The position numbers were made by a program, and so were the translations under genes. The notes under the pieces are model-generated. The model was not told the DNA's origin. It saw only the letters and a program-made list of their open reading frames with translations, and made no database searches. A stretch of DNA of 64,000 nt. Origin: an uncultured Acidobacteriota bacterium. Its GTDB lineage: Bacteria; Acidobacteriota; Thermoanaerobaculia; UBA5066; DATFVB01. Location of the stretch: NCBI GenBank assembly GCA_963813155.1, contig CAWEYG010000004.1, positions 40,328-104,327 on the forward strand, written 5' to 3'. Positions 26,033 through 39,828 of the stretch are shown here, piece after piece. The number at the start of each line of letters is the position of its first letter. The stretch's first letter is position 1.

Positions 26033-29000
26033 ATGAGTTTGACGACCGGCGCTCGCCTGGGTCCCTACGAAATCGTCGCTCCTCTCGGCGCCGGAGGCAT
26101 GGGAGAAGTGTACCGGGCGAGGGACGTGCGCCTCGGCCGCGAAGTGGCGGTCAAGGTATTGCCCGAAGAGTTCGGGCGGGATCCCGAGCGCCGGCAGCGA
26201 TTCGAGCGGGAAGCTCGCGCCGCTTCCGCCCTGTCCAGCCCTCATATCGTGACGGTCTTCGACGTCGGCCAGGAGGCCGAGGTCTGTTTCCTCGTGACCG
26301 AGCTCGTCGAGGGCGGTGACCTGCGCTCCCTCATCGGCAGTTCCGGTCTCACGGTCGAAAGAGATCGTCGCTCTCGCGCACCAGATCGCCGTCGGCCTTT
26401 CCGAAGCGCACGAGAAGGGAATCGTCCATCGCGACCTGAAACCGGAGAACGTTCTCGTCTCGAAATCGGGGGCGGCGAAGATCGCCGATTTCGGTCTTGC
26501 GAAAGTGTCGGCGAACGACGGAGACGACCTGTCTCAAATGTTGACGACCGACCGGGAGATGACCAGCCAGGGGGTCATCCTGGGGACGCTGCCCTACATG
26601 TCCCCCGAACAGGCGCGCGGAGAGAGAGTCGACTTCCGGTCGGACCAGTTCGCGCTCGGCGCGATCATCTACGAGCTCTTGACGGGGTCTCGCCGTTCAA
26701 GCGCCCGACGGCGGTGCTGACTCTCTCCGCGGTGATGGACCACGATCCACCGGCGCTGGGGGAGCATCGCAGCGGGCTGCCGGCTCGGTTCGAGAGAATC
26801 GTCCGTCGCTGCCTGGCAAAGGACAGGGAAGCGCGGTACCACTCGACGAAGGACCTCGCGCGGGACCTTCTCGACGCGTCCCGGCCCACGGTCGCGCCGT
26901 CGAAATCCGCGGCCTTGCCGCCCAGCCCGACTTTCGGGCGGACCCGCGAGCTCGAGGGGCTTCGGGCCCTTCTCGAACGAAGGGACGTTCGCCTGCTGAC
27001 GCTGACGGGCCCGGCCGGGATCGGAAAGACACGCCTCGCTCGCCAGGTCGCCTACGAGCTCGCGTCCGATTTCCCGGGCGGTGTGGAGTTCGTGTCTCTC
27101 GCGACTCTCAGCAATCCTTCGCTGCTGATTTCGGCCATCGCGAAATCGCTCGGGGTCGGCGAGCAGCCGGGCCGGCCGCTCGACGAGTCCCTTCGGGAGC
27201 ATCTGGCCGGCCGGGCCGGGGGCGCGACGCTCCTCGTTCTGGACAACTTCGAGCATCTCGTCTCGGAGGCCGGAGCGCTTCCGCCCATTCTCGACGCGGC
27301 GCCCGGGGTCAAGATTCTCGCGACGAGCCGCTCGGTGCTTCGCCTCTACGGCGAGCAGGAATTCCCGGTTCCGCCGCTCGAAACTCCGCGAGCGGGTGGC
27401 CGCGCCACGCCGGAGGCTCTCGAGACCATCGCTTCGGTCGAGCTCTTTCTCCAGAGGGCGCGCGCCGTGGCGCCGGATTTCTCGCTGACCGCCGAGAATG
27501 CGTCCGAAATCGCCGAGATCTGCCGGCGCCTGGAAGGAGTGCCCCTCGCGTTGGAGCTCGCCGCCGCGCGGGTCAAATTGTTCGCTCCCCGGACCCTGCT
27601 GGGACGCCTGGAGAAACGGCTCGATCTTCTGACGGGCGGTCCGCGGGACTCGCCCGGCCGCCTTCAGACGCTGCGGGCGGCGATCGATTGGAGCCACGAT
27701 CTGCTCGACGATTCGGAGAGGACGCTCTTTCGCCGGATCGCGGTCTTCCGGGGCGGTTTCACGCTGGAGGGCGTCGAGGCGGTGTGCAACGCGCGCGAGG
27801 ACCTGAGCCTCGACGTTCTGGAAGGAGTTGCTTCGCTCCGGGACAAGAGTCTCCTTCTCCGAATCGAGGGTGAGGAGGAGGAGCCGCGTTTCGCCCAGCT
27901 GGAGACGATTCGCGAGTACGGGTCGGAGCAGTTGACGAAGAGCGCGGAGCAGGAGTCGGTCTGCCGCTGTCATGCGGCGTATTTCCTGGTTCTCGCCGAG
28001 GAGGCCGACGCGAAGCTGACGGGCCCCGAGGGCCCGGCGTGGTACACGCGCCTGAAGCAGGAGGAGGCCAACCTGCGGGCAGCCGTGGATTGGTTGACGC
28101 TCGGGAACGAGCCGGTCTGGGGCCTGCGTCTCGGCGCGGCCCTGCTTCGGTACTGGGAGAGGCAGGAGTATTTCTCCGAGGGACGCGCGCAGCTCGAGGG
28201 CCTGCTCGCCGTGGCGGGCGCGCAGGTCCGGACGCGGGAGCGCGCGAGAGCCCTGCTCGCGGCGGGCATCCTGTCCTTCGCCCAGGGCAACCTTGCCGCG
28301 GGAACCGCCCGCGCTCAGGAGAGTCTCGAGATCTTTCGCGAAGTCGGCGATCGCCGAGGATGGGTCGCGGCCTTGAACGATCTGGCGGTCGGCGCGTTTT
28401 CCCGGGGCGAGTACGCGACGGCGGCTCCTCTGTTCGAGGAAGCGATCCCGATTCTGGAAGAGATCGGCGACCGCCTCGCCGCGGAGCGCACGCGGATGAA
28501 CCTTGCGGACACACTGCGGGCTTCGGGAGACGAGGAACGCGCCCGCGCGCTATTCGAGCGGTGTGTTCAGGCATTCACCGATCTCGCGGACTTCGACGGC
28601 CTGGCGTGGACGATGAGTCATCTCGCCAGGATGGAGAGCGACCGCGGGGGCCGCGTCGAGGCAAGACAACTGCTGACCCACAGCCTTTCCCTTTTCGAGA
28701 AGACGGGGGATTTCGTCGGGGTCGCCAATTGCCGGAGCGACTTGAGCAGGATTGCGGGAGGGGAGGGCGATTTTCCGGCCGCCCGCGAGCACCTTCGCAG
28801 CGGTATTCTCGTGGCGAGACGCGAGGGACTGCGGAGAAGCCTTGCGCGCCTCGCCGACGACGCCTGCGCGATGGCCGTCGCCGAGGGGCGATCCGAGGCA
28901 GCGCGTCCGCCTGGCCGCATCGGTCGAATCGTTTCGGAGGAGCAGCGGCTTTCCCGCGCCCGCAGGTGGAACGGACCGATTTCGACGGGACTCTTTCGAG

Positions 29001-29118
29001 GGCGAGGGCGGCCCTGAGTGAATCGCGCGCGGAAAGCGCTTGGCGCGACGGCGCGTCGATGTCGATCGACGACGCGCTCGAGGAAACCCTGGCTATTCCG
29101 CCGTCGTCGGATCGATGA
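26033..29118 (+). CDS. Ser/Thr protein kinase fused to a STAND-type P-loop NTPase and TPR repeats, frame broken about 4 times
   Basis: Kinase subdomains VI-IX ([19 protein letters not shown]) are in ORF 26316..26720. The rest is in ORF 26033..29017, including the P-loop [22 protein letters not shown] and a long TPR region. The C-terminus continues through frames 28752 and 28039 to the stop at 29118. Switches lie near 26345, 26685, 28905 and 28950. Confidence 0.8.
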
Positions 29119-29367
29119 GGTTGCGAACGAGCGAGATTCGGCTTGCCGGAAAGCCGGATCTCGCGCGGCGTGCTGCTTGATGAGGTCTTCGTCGGGCGCG
29201 AGATAGACGCAGTAGAGCCTGTCGTCGGTCACGAAACTCTGCAGCCACTGGATGTTGGGTCCCAGCTCTTTCAGGGTCGCGAGCGATTTCTGGGCCGCGG
29301 CCTGCAACTCCGAGGGGGACATCTTTCCGGCTCCGGGGATTTCCCGTTCGATGACGAATTTCGGCAT
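29093..29367 (-). CDS. DUF4242-like small protein, frame broken once
   Basis: It reads MPKFVIEREIPGAGKMSPSELQAAAQKSLATLKELGPNIQWLQSFVTDDRLYCVYLAPDEDLIKQHAAR. After a switch near 29155-29165 it continues ..[26 protein letters not shown] lies 7 nt upstream of the ATG. Confidence 0.65.
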
Positions 29368-29416
29368 CCTGACCTCCGGCTTTCCGCCCAATTGTAGCAG
29401 GCTGGGCGGAACCTCC

Positions 29417-29445
29417 TTGACAGGGGACGGGGGCTCGACTAGAGT
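29417..29445 (+). promoter_or_regulatory. sigma70-like promoter for the aro/trp leader
   Basis: TTGACA (29417-29422), a 17-nt spacer, then TAGAGT (29440-29445). The leader ATG lies 9 nt downstream. Confidence 0.55.
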
Positions 29446-29454
29446 TCCGGCTCG

Positions 29455-29508
29455 ATGAAGATCGGCTTTTCGCCCAGCTGGTATTGGTATAACGAGGCAA
29501 CTCGGTAG
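29455..29508 (+). CDS. candidate attenuation leader peptide MKIGFSPSWYWYNEATR
   Basis: A 17-codon ORF with Phe at codon 5 and alternating Trp/Tyr at codons 9-12 (29479-29490). It is followed by overlapping alternative helices and a terminator, and it lies directly upstream of the aromatic supraoperon. Confidence 0.5.
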   Translation: MKIGFSPSWYWYNEATR

Positions 29509-29568
29509 GGCGAAGCTCGCCCTGCCGGAGAAATTCGGGCGGGGCGATCGAGAGAGCGGATTGAATCG

Positions 29569-29598
29569 AAACCCCCGGCCGAACCGGGGGTTTTGAAT
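29569..29598 (+). terminator. intrinsic terminator (attenuator) abutting the aroDE start
   Basis: AAACCCCCGG (29569-29578) pairs with CCGGGGGTTT (29584-29593) across a 5-nt loop, followed by TGAATTTT. The TTG start of aroDE is at 29600. Confidence 0.7.
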
Positions 29599-29599
29599 T

Positions 29600-31116
29600 T
29601 TGGAACGGCCGCTTCCCCATCCCGCGTTCATCGCGTCGATCGCGCCGGCGGATTTCGACGACGCGAAACGGCTCGTGTCGCTCGTTCCCGAGGGGGCGAA
29701 CGCGATCGAGTACCGTCTGGATCTCGCGGCGGGGCGCATCTCCTCGAGGGCGCTCCTGGAGCTCGACCCGCGGTGCGCGATCGTGACCTACCGCACCGAG
29801 CGGGAAGGGGGAAAGTTCGGCGGGACCCTCGACGAGTACCGGCGATCCGTTCAATCGGCCTACGAAGCCGGGGCCGCCGTCGACGTCGAGCTGGAGAGCG
29901 CGACACTGGAAGATCGCGCCTTTCTTCCGGACCGGCGGCGCGTCATCGGCTCGCGGCACGCCGCGGGCGAGGGCGGCTGGCCGGACGCGGAGGTGTCCCG
30001 CTACCTGTCGGCGGACGTCGGCGCGGTCAAGCTCGTGCGCACGAACGTGAGCTCGATTTCCGACGGGTCGGCCTGCCTCGCCGCCCTGAGACGCCATTCC
30101 GGATCGCGGCCGTTCTCCTGCTTCGCGACCGGAACGCGCGGCACGTTCACCCGGATCGTCGGCGCCCGGTTCGGGTCGGCGCTGACGTACGGGAGCGTCG
30201 GAGCGCCGACGGCGGACGGGCAGGTTTCCGTCGCCGACCTCCGGGACGTCTATGGCGTCGGCCGGCCGGATCCGCCGACGAGAATCTTCGGCATCTACGG
30301 CGCCGACGTGTCGCGGTCGCTCTCGCCCGTCATCCACAACGCCCTCTTCGCCCGGCGCGGCCTTCCTTCGCTCTACCTTCCCCTGTCCGCGTCGGACGGA
30401 GCTCCGGGCGGGGACGTCCTGCGGCGCGATCTCGAAGCTCTCGCGTCGGCGGATCTCCTTCCCGCCGGGTTGTCCGTCACGAACCCGTTCAAGTCGGCGT
30501 TCGAGTCGATCGTGGAGGCGATCGACGAGGACGACGCGGTCGCGCGCACGGGCGCCGCGAACACGCTCGTCCGGATCGACGTCCCGGAGGACGGGCCGCG
30601 ATATCTCGCGCGGAACACCGATGCGGAAGCGGTCCTCGAGGTCCTCTCCGGCCTGCGGCTCGCGGGACGCACGGTCGTCGTCCTCGGCAACGGCGGAGCG
30701 GCGCGCGCCGCGGCCTACGCTGCCGGCCTGGCCGGGTGCGCGGTCTTCCTGGCCGGGCGCGACCTTCGGAAGGTCAAGCCGGTCGCCGACCGGTTCGGCG
30801 CGAACGCGATCGCCGTGGGCGATCTCTCGGGCCTGGAGGCGGACGTGCTCGTCAACGCGACTCCGCTCGGGACGGATCGAGGACGACCCGATCCCTTTCC
30901 CGCGCTCGTTGCTCGGCCCGGAAGCCGGCCGTCATCGATTTCGTGTACCGGCTCTCGGGAGAGACACCGCTCGTCCGCGAGGCCCGGGAGCGCGGCTGCG
31001 ACACGGCGGACGGCCGCGAGCTCCTCGCGCGCCAGGCCGTCGGGCAGGCGAAGCTCTTCGGCGCGGAGGGAGTTTCGTACGAGGAGATCGACGCGATCCT
31101 CCGGGAGCACCGGTGA
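29600..31116 (+). CDS. aroDE: bifunctional 3-dehydroquinate dehydratase (type I) / shikimate 5-dehydrogenase, frame broken at least once
   Basis: The N-terminal AroD-like half and the AroE half (SPVIHNA.., NTDAEA, VVVLGNGGAARAA, VNATPLG) are in ORF 29600..32248. The tail AVIDFVYRLSGETPLVREARERGC..GRELLARQAV is in ORF 29593..31116. The switch is near 30920-30930. Confidence 0.8.
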
Positions 31117-32520
31117 CGCGCGTCGTCACGCGGACGCTGCTCGCGGACACGACGACGCCCGTCGCCGTCATGCGAAAGCTGCTCGCCTCGGGCGGGGAGT
31201 CCTTTCTGCTCGAGAGCGTCGAGGGAGGCCGAAACGTCGCCCGCTACTCGTTTCTCGGCACGGCGCCGAAGGCGCGCATCGTGTTCCGGGACCGGGAGAT
31301 CTCCGTCGAGGGAGACGGGGCGGAGCAGCCGGCGTTCGACGGCCGCGATCCCCTCGGGGTCGTCAGCCGGCGCGTGGTGCGGCCGGGCTTTCGCCGGGAG
31401 GAAGGGCAGCCGCCGTTTTCGGGTGGCGCCGTCGGTTACCTCTCGTACGACGCGGTCCGGATGTTCGAGCGGATTCCCTCCCGGCACCCGCGCGTCTCCC
31501 GCATGCCGGACGCCCTGTTCCTCGTGTTCGATTCGACGATCGCGTTCGACCACGCGAAGGGGATCATGGTCCTCCAGTCGCTGGCCGAGGACTCGGAGGC
31601 CGACGCGGCCGCGGAATCGCGGCTCGACGTTCTCGAGAGGATCGTCGGGGCGCCCGCTCCGCCGGAAGACGGGCCGGCCGCGGCTCCTCCGGACTTCACG
31701 GAACGAACCTCGCGGGAGGGGTTCCTCGCGTCCGTCGACCTCGCGAAGGAACGGATTTCCGCGGGCGACATCTACCAGATCCAGATCTCCCGGAGGTGGT
31801 CCGGCCGGCTCGAGAGCGATCCGTTCGAGGTCTATCGCGCCCTCCGGAGGGTGAACCCTTCGCCTTACCAGTTCTTCCTGCGCACTCGCGAAGCCGATAT
31901 TCTCGGAGCGTCGCCGGAGATGCTCGTCCGGATCCGGGCCGGACGGATCGAGACCCGTCCGATCGCCGGAACGTATCCCCGCGGAGCCACTCCGGCGGAA
32001 GACCGGGAGCTCGAGGAGCGGTTTCTCTCCGACCCGAAGGAGAAAGCGGAGCACATCATGCTCGTCGACCTCGCGCGAAACGATCTCGGCCGGGTGTGCG
32101 AGAGCGGCAGCGTCTCGGTGCCGGAGTTCTTCCAGGTCGAGAAATACTCGCACGTGCAGCACCTCGTCTCCTCCGTCGTCGGGCCGCCTCAAGCCGGGCG
32201 TCACGGCTCTCGAGGCTCTCGCCGCGTCGTTTCCCGCGGGAACTCTGACCGGCGCGCCGAAGATCCGCGCGATGGAGCTGATCGACGAGCTCGAGACGAG
32301 CCGACGCGGGATCTACGGAGGCGCGATCGGATACCTGGACGCGTCGGGCGATCTCGACTCGGCGATCGCGATCCGCACGATGGCCGTCGAGGACGGGGAA
32401 GCCCGAATCCAGGCGGCCGCCGGGATCGTCGCCGACTCGGTGCCGGAGCGTGAGGCGCGGGAGACGGAGATCAAGTCCGGCGCGTTGTTCCGCGCGGCGC
32501 GGGAGGCGTGCGGCCGATGA
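31113..32520 (+). CDS. trpE: anthranilate synthase component I, frame broken once
   Basis: The GTG at 31113 forms a GTGA overlap. The body is in ORF 30252..32453 (LLESVEGG, SPEMLVR, IAGTYPRG, VDLARNDLGRV). The tail GAPKIRAMELIDELE..GIYGGAIGY is in the frame of ORF 32272..32520. An extra base lies near 32181-32186. Confidence 0.85.
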
Positions 32521-33092
32521 TCCTGATGGTCGACAACTACGACTCGTTCACGTTCAACCTCGTGCAGGCGATCGCGGTGCTCGATCCCGACGTTCGAGTC
32601 GTCCGGAACGACGAGTTCGACGTCGCCGAGGAAATCTCCCGGAAGCCGGCGAGGATCGTGATTTCGCCGGGGCCGGGCAGGCCCGAGGACGCGGGCAGGA
32701 CGATCGAGACGATCCGGGCCGCGGAGCGGGAGCGGATTCCGCTGCTCGGGGTCTGCCTCGGGCACCAGGCCATCGCGGTCGCGCACGGCGCGACGGTTTC
32801 GCGCGCTCCGGTGCCCGTGCACGGAAAGACTTCGCGGATCTCGCACGCCGGGATCGGCATCTTCGCCGGTCTCTCGAACCCGTTCGAGGCCACGCGTTAC
32901 CATTCCCTCGCGGTCGCGGAGCGGACGCTTCCGGAGGAGCTCGTGACGACCGCGCGTTCCGAGGACGGGCTCGTGATGGGAATTCGCCATGCGTCGCTGC
33001 CGGTCTTCGGCGTCCAGTTCCACCCCGAGTCGATTCTTTCGATCGAGGGACCGAAGCTGATCGCGAACTTCCTGCGCGGGAGCTTCGAGTGA
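32517..33092 (+). CDS. trpG: anthranilate synthase component II (glutamine amidotransferase)
   Basis: It reads MILMVDNYDSFTFNLVQ, with GVCLGHQ (the catalytic Cys) and FHPES. Its start forms an ATGA overlap with trpE. Confidence 0.9.
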   Translation: MILMVDNYDSFTFNLVQAIAVLDPDVRVVRNDEFDVAEEISRKPARIVISPGPGRPEDAGRTIETIRAAERERIPLLGVCLGHQAIAVAHGATVSRAPVPVHGKTSRISHAGIGIFAGLSNPFEATRYHSLAVAERTLPEELVTTARSEDGLVMGIRHASLPVFGVQFHPESILSIEGPKLIANFLRGSFE

Positions 33093-34099
33093 GCCTCCCG
33101 GACGCGCTCCGTCTGCTCGCGGAACGCCGGCCGATGAGCGGGGAGACGGCAAAGGGGGCGTTCCTCGACCTGATGGAGGGCCGGGCGACGGACGCGCAGA
33201 AGGGCGCGCTCCTGCTGGGGCTCGCGGCGCGGGGCGAAACGCCGGAGGAGGTCGCGGGAGCGGTTTCCGCGTTGCGGGAAAAGATGACGGCGGTGGTTTC
33301 GCGCCGGTCGCCGCTCGTGGACACGTGCGGAACCGGCGGCGACGGCGCGGCGACGTTCAACGTCTCCACGGCGGCGGCGCTCGTCTGCGCCGGGGCCGGA
33401 GCGGCCGTCGCGAAGCACGGCAACCGCGCGGTGTCGTCGCGCTGCGGATCGGCGGACGTTCTCGAGGCGCTCGGCGTTCCTCTGGAAACGACGGCCGAGG
33501 AGGTCGCGAGGGACCTCGAGTCCCGGGGATTCGCGTTCCTCTTCGCGCCCGCGTTCCATCCCGCGATGAAGGAAGCCGCCGCCGTCCGCCGACAGCTGGG
33601 CGTGCGCACGATATTCAACCTGATCGGTCCTCTCGCGAACCCGGCGCGACCGTCGCGGCAGCTGATCGGCGTCGGACGATTCGAGGTCGCGGACCTGCTG
33701 GCCCGGGCGATGGCGCTCCTCGAAAGCGAGCGGACGATCATCTTCCATTCCGAAAACGGCCTCGACGAGCTGACCCCGGGAGTTCCCGCGATCGGTTTCG
33801 AGATCCGCGGGCCGCGCGTCGACCCCTGGAAATTCGATCCCGGCGTGCTGGCGCAGCGCGCCGTCGCCCGCGAGGAGCTGGCGGGAGGCGACGCCCGCGA
33901 GAACGCCGCCGCGCTCGTTCGCCTCCTCGGGGGCGAGCGGGGCCCCTTGCGGGAAACCGTTCTCCTGAACTCCGCCGCGGGACTCTGGGTCGCGGGGACG
34001 GCGGCGACGCTGCACGACGGGTATGACCTCGCGTGCGATTCGATCGACGGCGGCCGCGCGGGCGCGGTTCTCGAGGCGGCGCAGCGGAGCGCGGCATGA
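33089..34099 (+). CDS. trpD: anthranilate phosphoribosyltransferase
   Basis: It contains DTCGTGGDG, KHGNRAVSS and a GTGA overlap start. Confidence 0.9.
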   Translation: MSLPDALRLLAERRPMSGETAKGAFLDLMEGRATDAQKGALLLGLAARGETPEEVAGAVSALREKMTAVVSRRSPLVDTCGTGGDGAATFNVSTAAALVCAGAGAAVAKHGNRAVSSRCGSADVLEALGVPLETTAEEVARDLESRGFAFLFAPAFHPAMKEAAAVRRQLGVRTIFNLIGPLANPARPSRQLIGVGRFEVADLLARAMALLESERTIIFHSENGLDELTPGVPAIGFEIRGPRVDPWKFDPGVLAQRAVAREELAGGDARENAAALVRLLGGERGPLRETVLLNSAAGLWVAGTAATLHDGYDLACDSIDGGRAGAVLEAAQRSAA

Positions 34100-34872
34100 G
34101 CGCCGGGGTGCTCGACGCGATCGTCTCCGCGACGCGACGCCGCGTTCGGGAGGGCGGGTATTCTCCCGCGGCGAAGGCCGGACCCTCGCCGCGCGGGGAT
34201 CTGTTCCTCGCGTCTCTGCGGGAGCCGGGGACCCGGATCATCGCCGAAATCAAGGCGAAGTCCCCGTCGGCCGGGGAGATCGTGCGGGACTGCGGCCGAA
34301 AAGTCGAAACCCTCGCGCTCGCGTACCGGCGAGGCCACGCGGCCGCGATCTCGGTCGTCACGGAACGGGAGTATTTCGGCGGGGATCCGGACTGGATCGC
34401 GAGGGCGAAAAAGATCTCCGGCCTGCCCGTGTTGATGAAGGACTTTGTGGTCGAGGAGGCCCAGCTGGACTTCGCGGCTTCGCACGGAGCCGACGCCGTG
34501 CTCCTGATCGCCTCGATTCTCGACGAGTCGGAACTGAGACGGCTGCGGGAGGCGGCGGAAGCCCGGGGATTGGCGGCCCTCGTGGAGACGCATTCGGAAA
34601 TCGAAATTGAGAGAGCGATCGCCGCCGGGGCGACGATCGTCGGGGTCAACGCGCGCAATCTTCAGTCCTTCGCCGTCGGGCTCGAAGACCTCGTTTCCCT
34701 CGCCCCGCGAATCCCTTCTCCGAGGGTTCGGGTTGCCGAGAGCGGAATCCGGACCCGCGGGGACGTCGAGACGCTCGCCGCCGCCGGATACGGCGCGTTT
34801 CTCGTCGGCGAGACGCTGCTGCGCTCGCACGAGCCCGAAGTCGTCCTCCGAGGCCTGCGGGGCGAGCCGTGA
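34096..34872 (+). CDS. trpC: indole-3-glycerol phosphate synthase
   Basis: It contains [16 protein letters not shown] and ESGI, with an ATGA overlap start. Confidence 0.9.
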
Positions 34873-35476
34873 CCGGCGTCAAGATCTGCGGGTTGACGCG
34901 GCCCGGGGACGTCGCGCTGGCGGCGGCCCTCGGCGCGAGCCACGTGGGCTTCAATTGTTCCCCGCGGAGCCCGAGGCGCGCCGATCTCCGGATCGCGGCC
35001 GAGCTCGCGCGGGAATCGGGAAACGCGAAGCGCGTCGGCGTGTTCGTCGACGAGACGGCGGAAGAGATTCGCCGGGCGGTCGACGCCCTCCGGCTGGACT
35101 TCCTTCAGATCCATCGCGCCCTTCGAGCTTCGGACCTGGATCACGGCCTGCCGGTCGTCGCCGTCGCCCGGGTCGACGGCGAAGCGGCGGAGGTGCCCGA
35201 GACGGCGCTTCTGCGCCGGTGCCGGGCGATTCTTTTCGATACCGCCGATCCCGGGAGGCCGGGCGGCACCGGGAATTCCTTCGACTGGAGGCTCCTCGAA
35301 CGGATGACCTTCCCCGTGCCGATGTGGCTGGCAGGCGGCCTGCGCGCCGACAACGTGGGGGAGGCGATCCTTCGCGGGCGGCCCGAGGTCGTCGACGTCG
35401 CGTCCGGAGTCGAATCGTCTCCCGGCGTCAAAGACAAGGCGAAGCTCGAAGCTTTCTTTCTCGCGGCGAGGCGGGC

Positions 35477-35480
<4 letters not shown>
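34869..35480 (+). CDS. trpF: phosphoribosylanthranilate isomerase
   Basis: It begins VKICGLTR and contains GGTGNSFDW and LAGGL, with a GTGA overlap start. Confidence 0.85.
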
Positions 35481-36651
<1,171 letters not shown>

Positions 36652-36655
<4 letters not shown>

Positions 36656-37461
36656 CGGCGTCGCGCCTCGCCGGGAAGTTCGAGGCCGCGCGGCTGGACG
36701 GCCGCGCCTGCTTCATTCCTTACCTGACGGCCGGCGACCCGGATCTCGCGACGACCGTCGCGCTCGCGCGGGAGCTCGATCGGTCCGGCGCGGACGTGCT
36801 CGAGCTCGGCGTTCCGTTCTCCGACCCGATCGCCGACGGACCGACTCTCCAGCGGGCCGCCGCCCGCGCGCTGGCCGGCGGAACGACGCTCGCGGGCGTG
36901 CTCGAATGCGCGGCCGAGATTCGCCGCTCCACCCGTCTCGCGCTCGTGCTCTTTTCGTACGCGAACCCGCTCTTCGCGCCGGGGTTCGCGCGCGCGATGG
37001 ACAGGTCGGCCGCGGCCGGTTTCGACGGCGTCCTGCTGACCGACGTTCCGGCGGAAGAGGCGGACGATTTCCTGCCCGCGATCGCGGCCTCGGGCCTCGA
37101 CCCGATCTTCCTCGTGTCGCCGACGTCACCCGAAGAGCGAATGCGAAGAGCCTCGCGCCTCTCGCGGGGTTTTCTGTACGTCATCTCGCGGACCGGGACG
37201 ACGGGGGAGAAGAAGTCGCTCGCGAGGGATCTCGCGCCGACGGTCCGGCGCGCCCGCCGCTGCTCCCCGGAGCTGCCGGTCGCCGTCGGGTTCGGCATTT
37301 CGACGGCCGCCGATGCGGCGCGCGTGGCCGCCCTTGCGGACGGCGTCATCGTCGGCTCGGCGCTCGTCCGGCTCGTCGAGTCGAGCGGACGGGACGCCGT
37401 CCCGGCGGCGGGACGGTTCGTCCGCGAAATGAGCGCGGCCTGCCTTCGAGCGCGGCGATGA
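36652..37461 (+). CDS. trpA: tryptophan synthase alpha chain
   Basis: It contains [15 protein letters not shown] and GFGIS, with a GTGA overlap start. Confidence 0.9.
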
Positions 37462-37751
37462 GCGTCAGCGAGTTGGAGCGCCTGAGGCAGGCGATCGACG
37501 AGCTCGATCGCGTGATCGTGAAGCTCCTGAACCAGCGCGCGAAATACGCGATCGAGATCGGCCACGCGAAGAAGACTGTCGCGCTGCCGGTGTATTCGCC
37601 CGAGCGGGAGCGCGAAGTTCTTCGCAACGTCGAGGACGAGAACCGCGGCCCGCTCTCCGCCGACGGAATCCGCCGGCTCTACGAACGCATCATCGACGAG
37701 TCGCGGCGAATCGAGCGCCAGGCGAAAGAAGAAGAACGGGAAGAGGAGTGA
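37458..37751 (+). CDS. chorismate mutase (AroQ class)
   Basis: It reads LRQAIDELDRVIVKLLNQRAKYAIEIGHAKK...PEREREVL and is 97 aa. Its start forms an ATGA overlap with trpA. Confidence 0.8.
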   Translation: MSVSELERLRQAIDELDRVIVKLLNQRAKYAIEIGHAKKTVALPVYSPEREREVLRNVEDENRGPLSADGIRRLYERIIDESRRIERQAKEEEREEE

Positions 37752-37758
37752 GGAACCC

Positions 37759-38772
37759 ATGTTGATCGTGATGAAGCCGAACGCGGGCGAAGCCGAAGTC
37801 GACGCGGTGATCGCGCGGCTCGTCGAAAAGGGGTTCGACGTCCACCGGTCGACGGGAGCGGAGCGGACCGTGCTCGGCGCGGTCGGACACGTCCAGAACA
37901 GCGACCCGCGGTTCTTCGAGGACATGGCCGGCGTGTTCGAGGTCGTCCGGATCAGCGAGCCGTACAAGCTTGCCGGGCGCACGTTCCAGCCGCGCGACAG
38001 CGTCGTGTCGGTTCGCGGGGTGCCGGTCGGCGGCGACGAGGTCGTCGTGATGGCGGGGCCGTGCACGATCGAGACGCGCGAGCAGGTGTACGAGAGCGCG
38101 AAGGCGATCGCCCGGGCGGGCGCGAAGATCCTGCGCGGGGGCGCGTACAAGCCGCGCACGTCCCCGTATTCCTACCAGGGGATGGGCGTCGATGGCTGGA
38201 AGATCCAGAGGGAAGTCGCCGACGAGTTCGGCCTCGCGACCGTGTCGGAGGTCATGGACTCCTCGCAGATCGAGGACGCGCTGGAGTACGTGGATCTCCT
38301 GCAGGTCGGCGCGAGGAACATGCAGAACTTCACGTTCCTGAAAGAGCTCGGCAAGATCCGCAAGCCGGTTCTCCTGAAACGCGGTCTCTCCGCGACGATC
38401 GAAGAATGGCTGTTGTCCGCCGAATACATCATGGCGGGCGGCAACCGCGACGTCATCCTGTGCGAGCGGGGAATCCGCACGTTCGAGCGCTACACGCGCA
38501 ACACGCTGGACATCTCCGCGATCCCGGTCATCGAGAAGCTCTCGCACCTGCCCGTCGTCGCCGACCCGTCGCACGGCACGGGGCACCGCGAGCAGGTCGC
38601 GCCGATGGCGCTCGCCGCGGCGGCCGCGGGCGCGGACGGCCTGATCATCGAGGTGCATCCCGATCCGGACAACGCGCTGTGCGACGGCCCGCAGTCGCTG
38701 CTGCCGGAGCAGTTCACGAGGCTGATGGATCAGCTCAGAATCATCGCCCCGGCCGTGGGGAAGCGGATTTGA
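37759..38772 (+). CDS. aroF: 3-deoxy-7-phosphoheptulonate (DAHP) synthase, type I-beta with an N-terminal regulatory extension
   Basis: It has an ACT/FL-like N-terminus ([21 protein letters not shown]), then [23 protein letters not shown] and DPSHGTG. Confidence 0.9.
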
Positions 38773-38778
38773 GCTACT

Positions 38779-38838
38779 CCCTCTCCCGGCGGGAGAGGGG
38801 TGGGGACCGGGGGGATGTCATTCCCGCGAAAGCGGGAA
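38779..38838. repeat. two GC-rich palindromic repeat units downstream of aroF
   Basis: One hairpin pairs CCCTCTCCC and GGGAGAGGG across GGC (38779-38799). The other is TTCCCGC-GAAA-GCGGGAA (38821-38838). No T-tract follows. The first unit recurs inside the gene at 40719-40759. Confidence 0.65.
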
Positions 38839-39828
38839 GGTGGATTCACATTTGAAGTGCAACAGATGAGAGAAGACCTCGGCCGGGGTTTGGAAGTCAA
38901 GGCATTTCCTAGGTGTGTGATTGTAGAGTTGGGCAAGGCGGAGGATTTGGCTCGTGGGAAGGACTGCCAGGTCGGTTTTTCGGGGGAGGAAGCGACGAAG
39001 CCGGCCGATGGCATTTTCGACTCCGCCCTTCTGCCAAGGAGACCGTGGATCGCAAAAGAATGTTTCGACTCCGAGGGTTTTTCCCAGGCGGTGATGGAAA
39101 GCGAACTCGGTTCCGTTGTCGAAGGTCACGGTGCGGCGCAGGGACGGGGGAAGAGGTCGCAGAAGATTTTCGATGGTAGAGACAAGAGGTGCGGCGGCCT
39201 TGCTTTGTTGACGCAGGATAACCGTCAGTCGAGAAGTACGTTCGTGAAGGGCCAAGACGGCCTGCCCATAGGTGGCAAAGAGCATGAGATCGGCCTCCCA
39301 ATGGCCAGGGTTGGTTCGGTCACTGGCTTCTGGGGGTCGCAGAGCAATGGGGACACGGTTTTGGATGTGCACGGTCGAGTTGCCGTGTTTTGGGGAGCGT
39401 CGGCCGCGCTTGCTCTTGCCGCGGGGGAGGTAGAGCCGCCAGGAGTAATCCTTGGTGCGAGCGATCTGAGCGGCGATGAAGCGATAAATGGTTTCATGAC
39501 TGACAACCGGCCGGCCTTCTTCGCGCGCGAGCCTGCCGGCGACCTCCTGCGGCGACCATCCCTGACTGAGGCGGTCCAAGACCAGAGCCTGGAGGTCGGG
39601 CCGACGCAACAGTTTGCTGCCGGTCCAGCGCCGTGCCTTGGCCTGTTGACCGGCGTAAACGGGCTGATACCCGCCCGACGTCGTGCTGTTGCGCTTCAGC
39701 TCCCGAGCAACGCTCGATGGCGCGCGATCCAGACCTGCCGCGATTTGCCGGATCGATTGCCCGGCGCAGCGACGCCGGGCAATCTCACACCGTTCCTGGA
39801 TCCCAAGCTGCCCGTATTGGCGCCCCAT
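38818..39828 (-). CDS. IS30-family transposase
   Basis: It is 336 aa with an N-terminal HTH (RCAGQSIRQIAAGLDRAPSSVARELKRN) and a DDE region (GHWEADLM, TFDNGTEF, PWQKGGVEN). The ORF reads through the left IR and stops 25 nt outside it. Confidence 0.9.
   Translation of the reverse strand: MGRQYGQLGIQERCEIARRRCAGQSIRQIAAGLDRAPSSVARELKRNSTTSGGYQPVYAGQQAKARRWTGSKLLRRPDLQALVLDRLSQGWSPQEVAGRLAREEGRPVVSHETIYRFIAAQIARTKDYSWRLYLPRGKSKRGRRSPKHGNSTVHIQNRVPIALRPPEASDRTNPGHWEADLMLFATYGQAVLALHERTSRLTVILRQQSKAAAPLVSTIENLLRPLPPSLRRTVTFDNGTEFAFHHRLGKTLGVETFFCDPRSPWQKGGVENAIGRLRRFLPRKTDLAVLPTSQILRLAQLYNHTPRKCLDFQTPAEVFSHLLHFKCESTFPLSRE

Follow-up and report, generated by a model that had tools for sequence, protein, structure and literature searches.

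A conserved leader ahead of aroDE in Thermoanaerobaculia is very likely a leader-peptide attenuator with sensing codons that differ with operon content

The window analysed here is the whole of a 64,000-nucleotide stretch of contig CAWEYG010000004.1, from an uncultured bacterium of the lineage Thermoanaerobaculia (Acidobacteriota). It carries an operon in which the fused gene aroDE is followed by trpEGDCFBA and by genes for a chorismate mutase (CM) and a DAHP synthase (DAHPS). Ahead of aroDE lies a leader element that, judged from sequence, is very likely a transcription attenuator of this operon, of the ribosome-mediated (leader-peptide) type. It consists of a short open reading frame (sORF) with alternating Trp (W) and Tyr (Y) codons, a chain of alternative helices and a terminator hairpin that includes the Shine-Dalgarno (SD) sequence of aroDE. 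A first-pass annotation of the window had read the region in this way, with a W/Y leader peptide, alternative helices and an SD-masking terminator at its core. This reading is now supported by conservation in related genomes, by the match between sensing codons and operon content and by RNA folding. The features of the element and of the operon are as follows, all on the plus strand.

29417-29422, plus strand: -35 hexamer TTGACA of the leader promoter (promoter scan, conservation in relatives)
29440-29445, plus strand: -10 hexamer TAGAGT, 17 nt after the -35 (promoter scan, relatives)
29455 (ATG) to 29506-29508 (TAG), plus strand: leader sORF, 17 codons and UAG, encoding MKIGFSPSWYWYNEATR (reading of the open reading frame, relatives)
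29479-29490, plus strand: putative regulatory codons UGG UAU UGG UAU (W9 Y10 W11 Y12), codons -9 to -6 from the stop
29502-29513, plus strand: segment A, 5' arm of hairpin A:B; it includes the stop UAG (29506-29508) and the sense codon before it, CGG
29517-29529, plus strand: segment B, partner of A or alternatively of C
29534-29547, plus strand: segment C, partner of B (anti-antiterminator) or of D (antiterminator)
29566-29583, plus strand: segment D, comprising the terminator 5' arm (29566-29578) and loop (29579-29583); 29573-29583 is also the partner of C
29584-29596, plus strand: segment E, the terminator 3' arm, including the SD-like GGGGG at 29586-29590
29591-29601, plus strand: U tract TTTTGAATTTT, overlapping the TT of the aroDE TTG start (29600-29602)
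29600-31116, plus strand: aroDE, the first regulated gene, a type I dehydroquinase-shikimate dehydrogenase fusion (DHquinase_I and Shikimate_dh_N)
31113-38772, plus strand: the rest of the operon, trpE, G, D, C, F, B and A, CM_2, and DAHP synthase with an FXD domain

Reading 29200-29800 verified all positions that the first-pass annotation had given. The leader promoter is the sole sigma-70-like site in a scan of 28500-30500, where 0.1 would be expected from shuffled sequence; the promoter proposed earlier, TTGACA and TAGAGT spaced by 17 nt, is thus the only one of its kind in 2 kb. The 17-codon W/Y sORF that had been proposed to start without an SD at ATG 29455 was likewise confirmed, as was the placement of the aroDE start (TTG at 29600) behind an SD-like GGGGG that lies inside the terminator 3' arm. 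The spacing of promoter and sORF suggests that the leader transcript is leaderless or nearly so.

Relatives were collected by AroDE alignment, which found 41 loci in species-representative genomes; one metagenome match and eleven exact-protein look-ups added more, and the look-ups also widened the context of known loci. A metagenome scan for close relatives returned a single locus. The relatives are all metagenome-assembled genomes (MAGs). The element, about 190 nt long, was found ahead of aroDE in 45 of the 46 Thermoanaerobaculia loci that have DNA upstream of this gene, and the noncoding leader is far better conserved than AroDE itself, whose identity drops to about 40%. Each locus has one copy of the scaffold, and no further copy was found in the remainder of the window or of the 20-kb loci. 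The -35 sequence is TTGAC(A/T/G), with constant spacing to the sORF start, in 44 of the 45 distinct leaders, and in the relatives an nAnnnT -10 hexamer follows 16-19 nt past it. From the end of the -10 to the start codon there are 7-12 nt (mode 9-10) in 44 of 45 leaders, and this interval is pyrimidine-rich and lacks an SD. The sORFs are 14-25 codons long and in frame in 45 of 46 loci, starting with ATG in 40 cases and with GTG in four. A UGG stands at codon -7 from the stop in 44 of 45 leaders. The arrangement that was to be looked for upstream of aroDE in related genomes is thus present there, with a conserved short sORF and a conserved UGG.

At its 3' side the sORF merges with the helices. 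All 45 leaders have CGG as their final sense codon and UAG as their stop, both paired in helix A, and the leader peptide is otherwise not conserved between clades. The sequence CGGUAGGGCG is invariant in segment A, and 98.9% of the alignment cells of A:B are paired. Across the 45 leaders, an invariant CGG-UAG-GGCG is followed by a loop of 3-6 nt, then by CGCCCUGCCG and by the core GGSCGGGGCG. The terminator of the relatives is GC-rich (AACCCCCGRCC...GGGGGUUUUUGUUUUG) and is followed by a U tract (TTTTTGTTTTG or TTTTTGATTTTG) that ends in the start codon of aroDE, TTG or ATG; GGGGG lies 8-14 nt ahead of this start. A role for the REATR or EVNR tail at the level of the peptide, as in TnaC-like arrest, was considered and rejected, since the tail varies between clades and only the helix-A-paired CGG and UAG are invariant. 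The invariance of these two codons in 45 of 45 leaders (29503-29508 in the window) may point to an additional requirement for RF1-specific termination.

The sensing codons of the sORF were compared with the genes of the operon behind it. Five types of locus were distinguished:

WWW, WW or WxW: the majority of loci; aroDE is followed directly by trpE
WYWY, GYWY, YWYW or WYWYW: the window, L002, L042, L044, L046, L001, L043 and L003; AroDE at least 54% identical
HHWHH or HHWHY: L010, L015, L017, L018, L028, L051, L052 and L053; aroDE-hisZGDCBHAFIE-trpE
NGWRN (single W): L021 and L047; no his genes and no His codons, with an EVNR tail as in the His-type clade
No leader: L039 (3700-5600), judged by eye and with a covariance model; aroDE without following trp genes

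Every HHWH(H/Y) leader precedes aroDE-hisZGDCBHAFIE-trpE, and every other leader precedes aroDE-trpE. In the W/Y-leader operons with a visible end (the window, L043 and L049), CM_2 and DAHPS follow trpA. In the W-only operons with a visible end (L048, L050 and L054), trpA is followed by a gene for a 218-aa protein without a Pfam match, and no CM or DAHPS was found after trpA in the W-only operons L047, L048, L050 and L054. The earlier proposal that a mixed Trp/Tyr sensor would be coherent with the operon agrees with this pattern: W/Y leaders go with operons that combine trp genes, CM and DAHPS. The choice of Tyr also fits the FXD-type (ferredoxin-like) DAHP synthase of this operon, since the FXD-type enzyme of Thermotoga is feedback-inhibited by Tyr; the chorismate mutase is of type II (CM_2). 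The Phe at codon 5, which had been counted as a part of the sensor, is not conserved within the W/Y clade and was rejected as a regulatory codon. A neighbour-joining tree of AroDE places L021 and L047 within the His-type clade; the tree is noisy, as several long-read MAG genes are frameshifted, and was used solely for this placement. Both synonymous codons are in use for each residue, TAT and TAC for Tyr and CAT and CAC for His, which argues for selection on codon identity and not on the RNA sequence. As the codons are swapped on a fixed scaffold in step with gene content, the comparative evidence suggests that sensing is done by the codons and not by the peptide. Codon types that track operon content are what a translated sensor would predict, and they would be hard to fit to an RNA that binds a ligand or a protein.

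The fused operon behind HHWHH leaders runs aroDE, hisZ, G, D, C, B, H, A, F, IE, trpE, G, D onward, and was seen in L010, L015, L017, L018, L028, L051 (10001-21485) and L052 (2940-14391); we know of no description of such an aro-his-trp gene order. In L039, there is no promoter-like TTGACA and aroDE is followed by the 218-aa gene, and GGGGGTTTTTGTTTTG still stands ahead of aroDE.

The helices were then evaluated by folding. The four helices of the first-pass annotation are all present, with the correction that A:B, stated as 6 bp, is really 12 bp. In the window they are:

29502-29513 with 29517-29528, plus strand: A:B, 12 bp, -22.2 kcal/mol
29518-29529 with 29534-29546, plus strand: B:C, 12 bp and one bulge, -23.9 kcal/mol
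29534-29544 with 29573-29583, plus strand: C:D, 10 of 11 paired, -23.2 kcal/mol
29566-29578 with 29584-29596, plus strand: D:E terminator, 13 bp, GC-rich, -23.7 kcal/mol

A:B and B:C draw on the same bases of B, and the antiterminator C:D shares 29573-29578 with the terminator 5' arm. The mean energies over the 45 leaders are -21.4 +/- 1.5 (A:B), -20.9 +/- 1.9 (B:C), -22.7 +/- 3.1 (C:D) and -23.1 +/- 2.7 kcal/mol (D:E), so that the four mutually exclusive helices are nearly iso-energetic both in the window and on average. In the window, antiterminator and terminator are close in energy (-23.2 against -23.7 kcal/mol). The RNA of 29450-29605 folds with -72.3 kcal/mol, below 200 of 200 dinucleotide shuffles (z = -4.1). 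The full-length minimum-energy fold is A:B with D:E in most loci and in nearly all relatives, and B:C with D:E in the window. Pairing of the 5' part of the sORF with segment C also appears in full-length folds; it is lost in most loci when E is left out, and we treated it as a by-product.

For the stalled state, the transcript was cut just before E and a ribosome block was placed at the first or last W codon. A:B with C:D was then the minimum-energy structure in every locus listed. When the A site holds the last sensing codon, the ribosome footprint stops 0-3 nt short of A. If the ribosome has reached the stop, it covers A and the loop, and B:C is then best in about half of the loci listed; in the window, B:C is favoured for footprint edges up to +10 (29516) and C:D at +12. 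Ribosome-constrained folding thus reproduced one half of the proposed attenuation logic, the stalled state, in every locus listed, whereas the outcome of the stop state in the window depends on the footprint. Without a ribosome, the transcript truncated before E mostly folds into A:B with C:D, and the predicted default is therefore readthrough (ON).

These results are consistent with the following mechanism. Transcription would start at the sORF AUG or within a few bases of it, and the leader peptide would be translated in the leaderless mode. The sensing codons stand 6-9 codons ahead of the stop, and the UAG lies within the 5' arm of A:B. A shortage of charged tRNA-Trp (and, by inference, tRNA-Tyr) would stall the ribosome just before its front edge reaches A. 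A:B would then be closed, leaving C free to join D once D has been made, and with C:D formed the D:E terminator could not form; RNA polymerase would read into aroDE and the SD in E would be exposed. Under good supply the ribosome would reach the stop and cover A, and B would take C as it emerges. D would then be free for E, transcription would end in the U tract, and any readthrough RNA would have its SD sequestered. A leader that is not translated would fold as A:B with C:D, making the default state ON. C is transcribed about 25 nt ahead of D and B:C is a local hairpin, from which we infer that B:C forms first and holds. We consider the exact kinetics of the five segments fairly probable.

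Pair counts and covariation were determined on an alignment of 45 sequences, with 500 shuffles. Of the cells in B:C and D:E, 94.5% are paired, and of those in A:B and C:D 92.3%, as against 31-62% when the partners are slid by 1-3 columns. B:C alone has 95% of its cells paired; C:D alone has 86% in a fixed register, without significant covariation. For B:C with D:E, one of 500 shuffles reaches the observed covariation score, with compensatory changes at alignment columns 56-66, 57-65 and 58-64 and a pair of three types at 111-124. Covariation of the helices in relatives, named earlier as a check, was seen in part: B:C with D:E scores above 499 of 500 shuffles, whereas A:B with C:D does no better than shuffled sequence. 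The weak covariation is explained by helix arms that are nearly invariant, and the near-invariance of B, C and D by the fact that each base serves two exclusive helices. The variable distal part of C forms more stable C:D duplexes with the terminator apex of its own locus than with that of another (-9.8 vs -8.7 kcal/mol, permutation p = 0.004), in a test that is weakened by the kinship of the loci.

A number of points weigh against the attenuator. Shuffled sequence equals or exceeds the covariation score of A:B with C:D in 174 of 500 cases. At a footprint of +12, the equilibrium structure is still C:D in the window and in about half of the loci listed, so that termination would rely on B:C forming first, which is a kinetic argument. 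The links of Tyr to CM-DAHPS and of His to the his operon each correspond to one clade in the noisy tree, and thus to few independent events. The transcription start site (TSS), the order of folding, termination itself, the premature 3' end, the response to amino acids and the sensing of Tyr are all deduced from sequence. In the window, aroDE and trpE are apparently frameshifted: single frame switches relative to the intact L043 orthologues occur at 30905-30919 in aroDE and at 32182 in trpE, as well as at 29164 in the divergent upstream gene for an SCO4226-like protein. As many of the related genomes are long-read MAGs ('MFD' isolates), these switches are probably indel errors, with pseudogenes as the alternative. 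Finally, the U tract behind the terminator stem of the window is broken up (TTTTGAATTTT), where relatives carry GGGGGTTTTTGTTTTG, and a simple terminator scan of the window region did not call the D:E hairpin.

These last two observations would also be expected under control of translation only, in which D:E does not terminate transcription and hides the SD and start of aroDE, while translation of the sORF remodels the leader. In all loci, GGGGG lies in the 3' arm and the U tract ends in the aroDE start, which agrees with this as well. Yet most relatives have a textbook GC-rich stem of 11-14 bp followed by UUUUUGUUUUG, and since the same alternative helices serve both mechanisms, masking of the SD probably adds to termination and does not replace it; we regard translational control without termination as unlikely. 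It is much less likely that the leader is an RNA that binds a protein or ligand, such as a riboswitch, a T-box or a TRAP-like target, with the sORF being incidental. The near-invariance of CGGUAGGGCG...CGCCCUGCCG...GGSCGGGGCG, which goes beyond the needs of simple helices, could be read in this way, but it is explained by bases that each take part in two exclusive helices. The frame, length, start spacing and UGG position of the sORF are conserved, and its codons change with operon content, which would not be required of a ligand sensor. An Rfam search of the window region gave no relevant match at E <= 10, including Trp_leader (RF00513), T-box and riboswitch families, and four related loci gave none at the gathering score. 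Inspection of 29455-29600 revealed no regular (G/U)AG array of the TRAP type, with few irregular GAG/UAG triplets only. High-GC DNA is rich in spurious open reading frames and inverted repeats, so a short frame beside an ordinary hairpin might arise by chance; this is hardly credible for a frame, position and structure kept in 45 of 46 loci and a fold with z = -4.1, and it is already contradicted by the comparative data.

Beyond the attenuator of the window, we lean towards a wider reading of the family. Thermoanaerobaculia would share one conserved, leaderless, five-segment scaffold with a default-ON state, and its specificity would have been rewritten at each remodelling of the operon: from W to W/Y when CM and DAHPS joined, from W to HHWHH when the his operon was inserted between aroDE and trpE, giving a hybrid His and Trp sensor, and back to a single W where his genes are absent. 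If this is true, starvation for either amino acid would derepress the whole unit (OR logic).

Attenuation by leader peptides is textbook biology, almost all of it from Proteobacteria and Actinobacteria. Like trpL of Escherichia coli (RF00513), the element described here has a short Trp-codon sORF and exclusive helices that end in an intrinsic terminator, with the position of the ribosome selecting between them. It has no sequence or covariance-model similarity to trpL, and it has five segments instead of four. Its stop codon is located within the first helix and its Trp codons upstream of that helix; its sORF lacks an SD and starts 7-12 nt past the -10; its terminator doubles as an SD mask; and its operon includes aroDE, CM and DAHPS. 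The untranslated trp leader of E. coli terminates, whereas the untranslated leader here is predicted to read through. The enterobacterial his, thr and ilvGMEDA leaders have more than three alternative helices and codons for more than one amino acid that match the operon products, and both traits recur here. Unlike in these leaders, which serve one pathway or linked pathways, Trp is combined on one scaffold with Tyr, or with His where the his operon is present. In Bacillus subtilis, TRAP is a protein that binds 11 (G/U)AG repeats. The B. subtilis aromatic supraoperon resembles the present one in joining aro, trp and a his-related gene in one unit under termination control in the leader (PMC4027176); unlike the TRAP target, the leader here has no (G/U)AG array, and its sensor would be a translated sORF.

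Trp attenuators with Trp codons have been described for the high-GC Gram-positive Actinobacteria Streptomyces venezuelae (trpE) and Corynebacterium glutamicum (PMC1262725, PMC4833913). They share classical attenuation by Trp codons with the Thermoanaerobaculia leaders and differ in lineage, helix chain and operon content, with no homology in Rfam. In Deinococcus deserti, 14 leaderless leader peptides have been predicted, including one for trpEGD with a mapped TSS at -1 (PMC4007540), and mycobacteria have leaderless poly-Cys regulatory sORFs (bioRxiv 10.1101/834739). As in these two groups, the sORF described here lies at or near the transcript 5' end, has no SD, is rich in cognate residues and stands upstream of biosynthetic genes; it comes from another phylum, its sequence is unrelated, and its TSS is placed by promoter spacing. 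In Sinorhizobium meliloti, the Trp attenuator trpL releases an RNA (rnTrpL) and a peptide (peTrpL) with second jobs (PMC6614838, PMC7298713). Such second jobs are a possible reason for the extra sequence conservation seen here, although conservation of the peptide is here limited to the sensing codons and nothing indicates a function in trans. A literature search, which covered subscription journals only in part, found no trp leader in Acidobacteria and no His and Trp leader.

The element would give Acidobacteriota their own well-defined attenuator family. It would also amount to a natural experiment, in which the sensing codons on a fixed RNA scaffold are swapped in step with the gain and loss of operon genes. 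The covariance model can be used to annotate uncultured Thermoanaerobaculia genomes, and the codons predict which amino acids control the fused aro-his-trp operon. The default-ON, five-helix, iso-energetic design may be reusable in synthetic biology.

Upstream of the leader, the gene for the SCO4226-like protein is transcribed divergently, and two features belong to it.

29370 (ATG), minus strand: start of the SCO4226-like gene
29391-29396, minus strand: -10 hexamer TACAAT, preceded by TGC (extended -10-like), 21 nt upstream of this ATG

A GGAGG SD lies between TACAAT and the ATG. TACAAT, which reads ATTGTAGC on the plus strand, is kept in L002, L043, L044 and L046 of the window's clade, and is likely the promoter of the divergent gene and not part of the attenuator. 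A 7-bp palindrome around it (29384-29390 and 29403-29409) had been put forward as an additional operator. The palindrome exists, but perfect 7-bp inverted repeats with spacers of 5-20 nt occur 3.8 times per kb in the window, and this one is missing from L002 and L042, relatives of 90% and 96%; it has the look of a chance repeat and was rejected as an operator.

Within aroDE, Rfam gave a sub-threshold match to M23 RNA at 29919-29963 on the minus strand (31.6 bits vs a gathering score of 41.2, E = 0.0007), which is probably a chance match in GC-rich sequence. The operon ends with the DAHP synthase gene, and immediately past it lies a transposase-like gene (38818-39828, minus strand), with HTH_38 above the Pfam cut-off and the integrase core rve at 27.4 bits, under the cut-off of 32.6. 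The gene directly after trpA in W-only operons is conserved and encodes 218-219 aa without a Pfam match:

L048, 17894-18550: 218-219-aa gene
L050, 17958-18617: 218-219-aa gene
L054, 18006-18662: 218-219-aa gene
L047, 18355-19011: 218-219-aa gene

In the W/Y clade, the same gene is found about 2.3 kb further downstream, past CM, DAHPS and a Pyr_redox gene.

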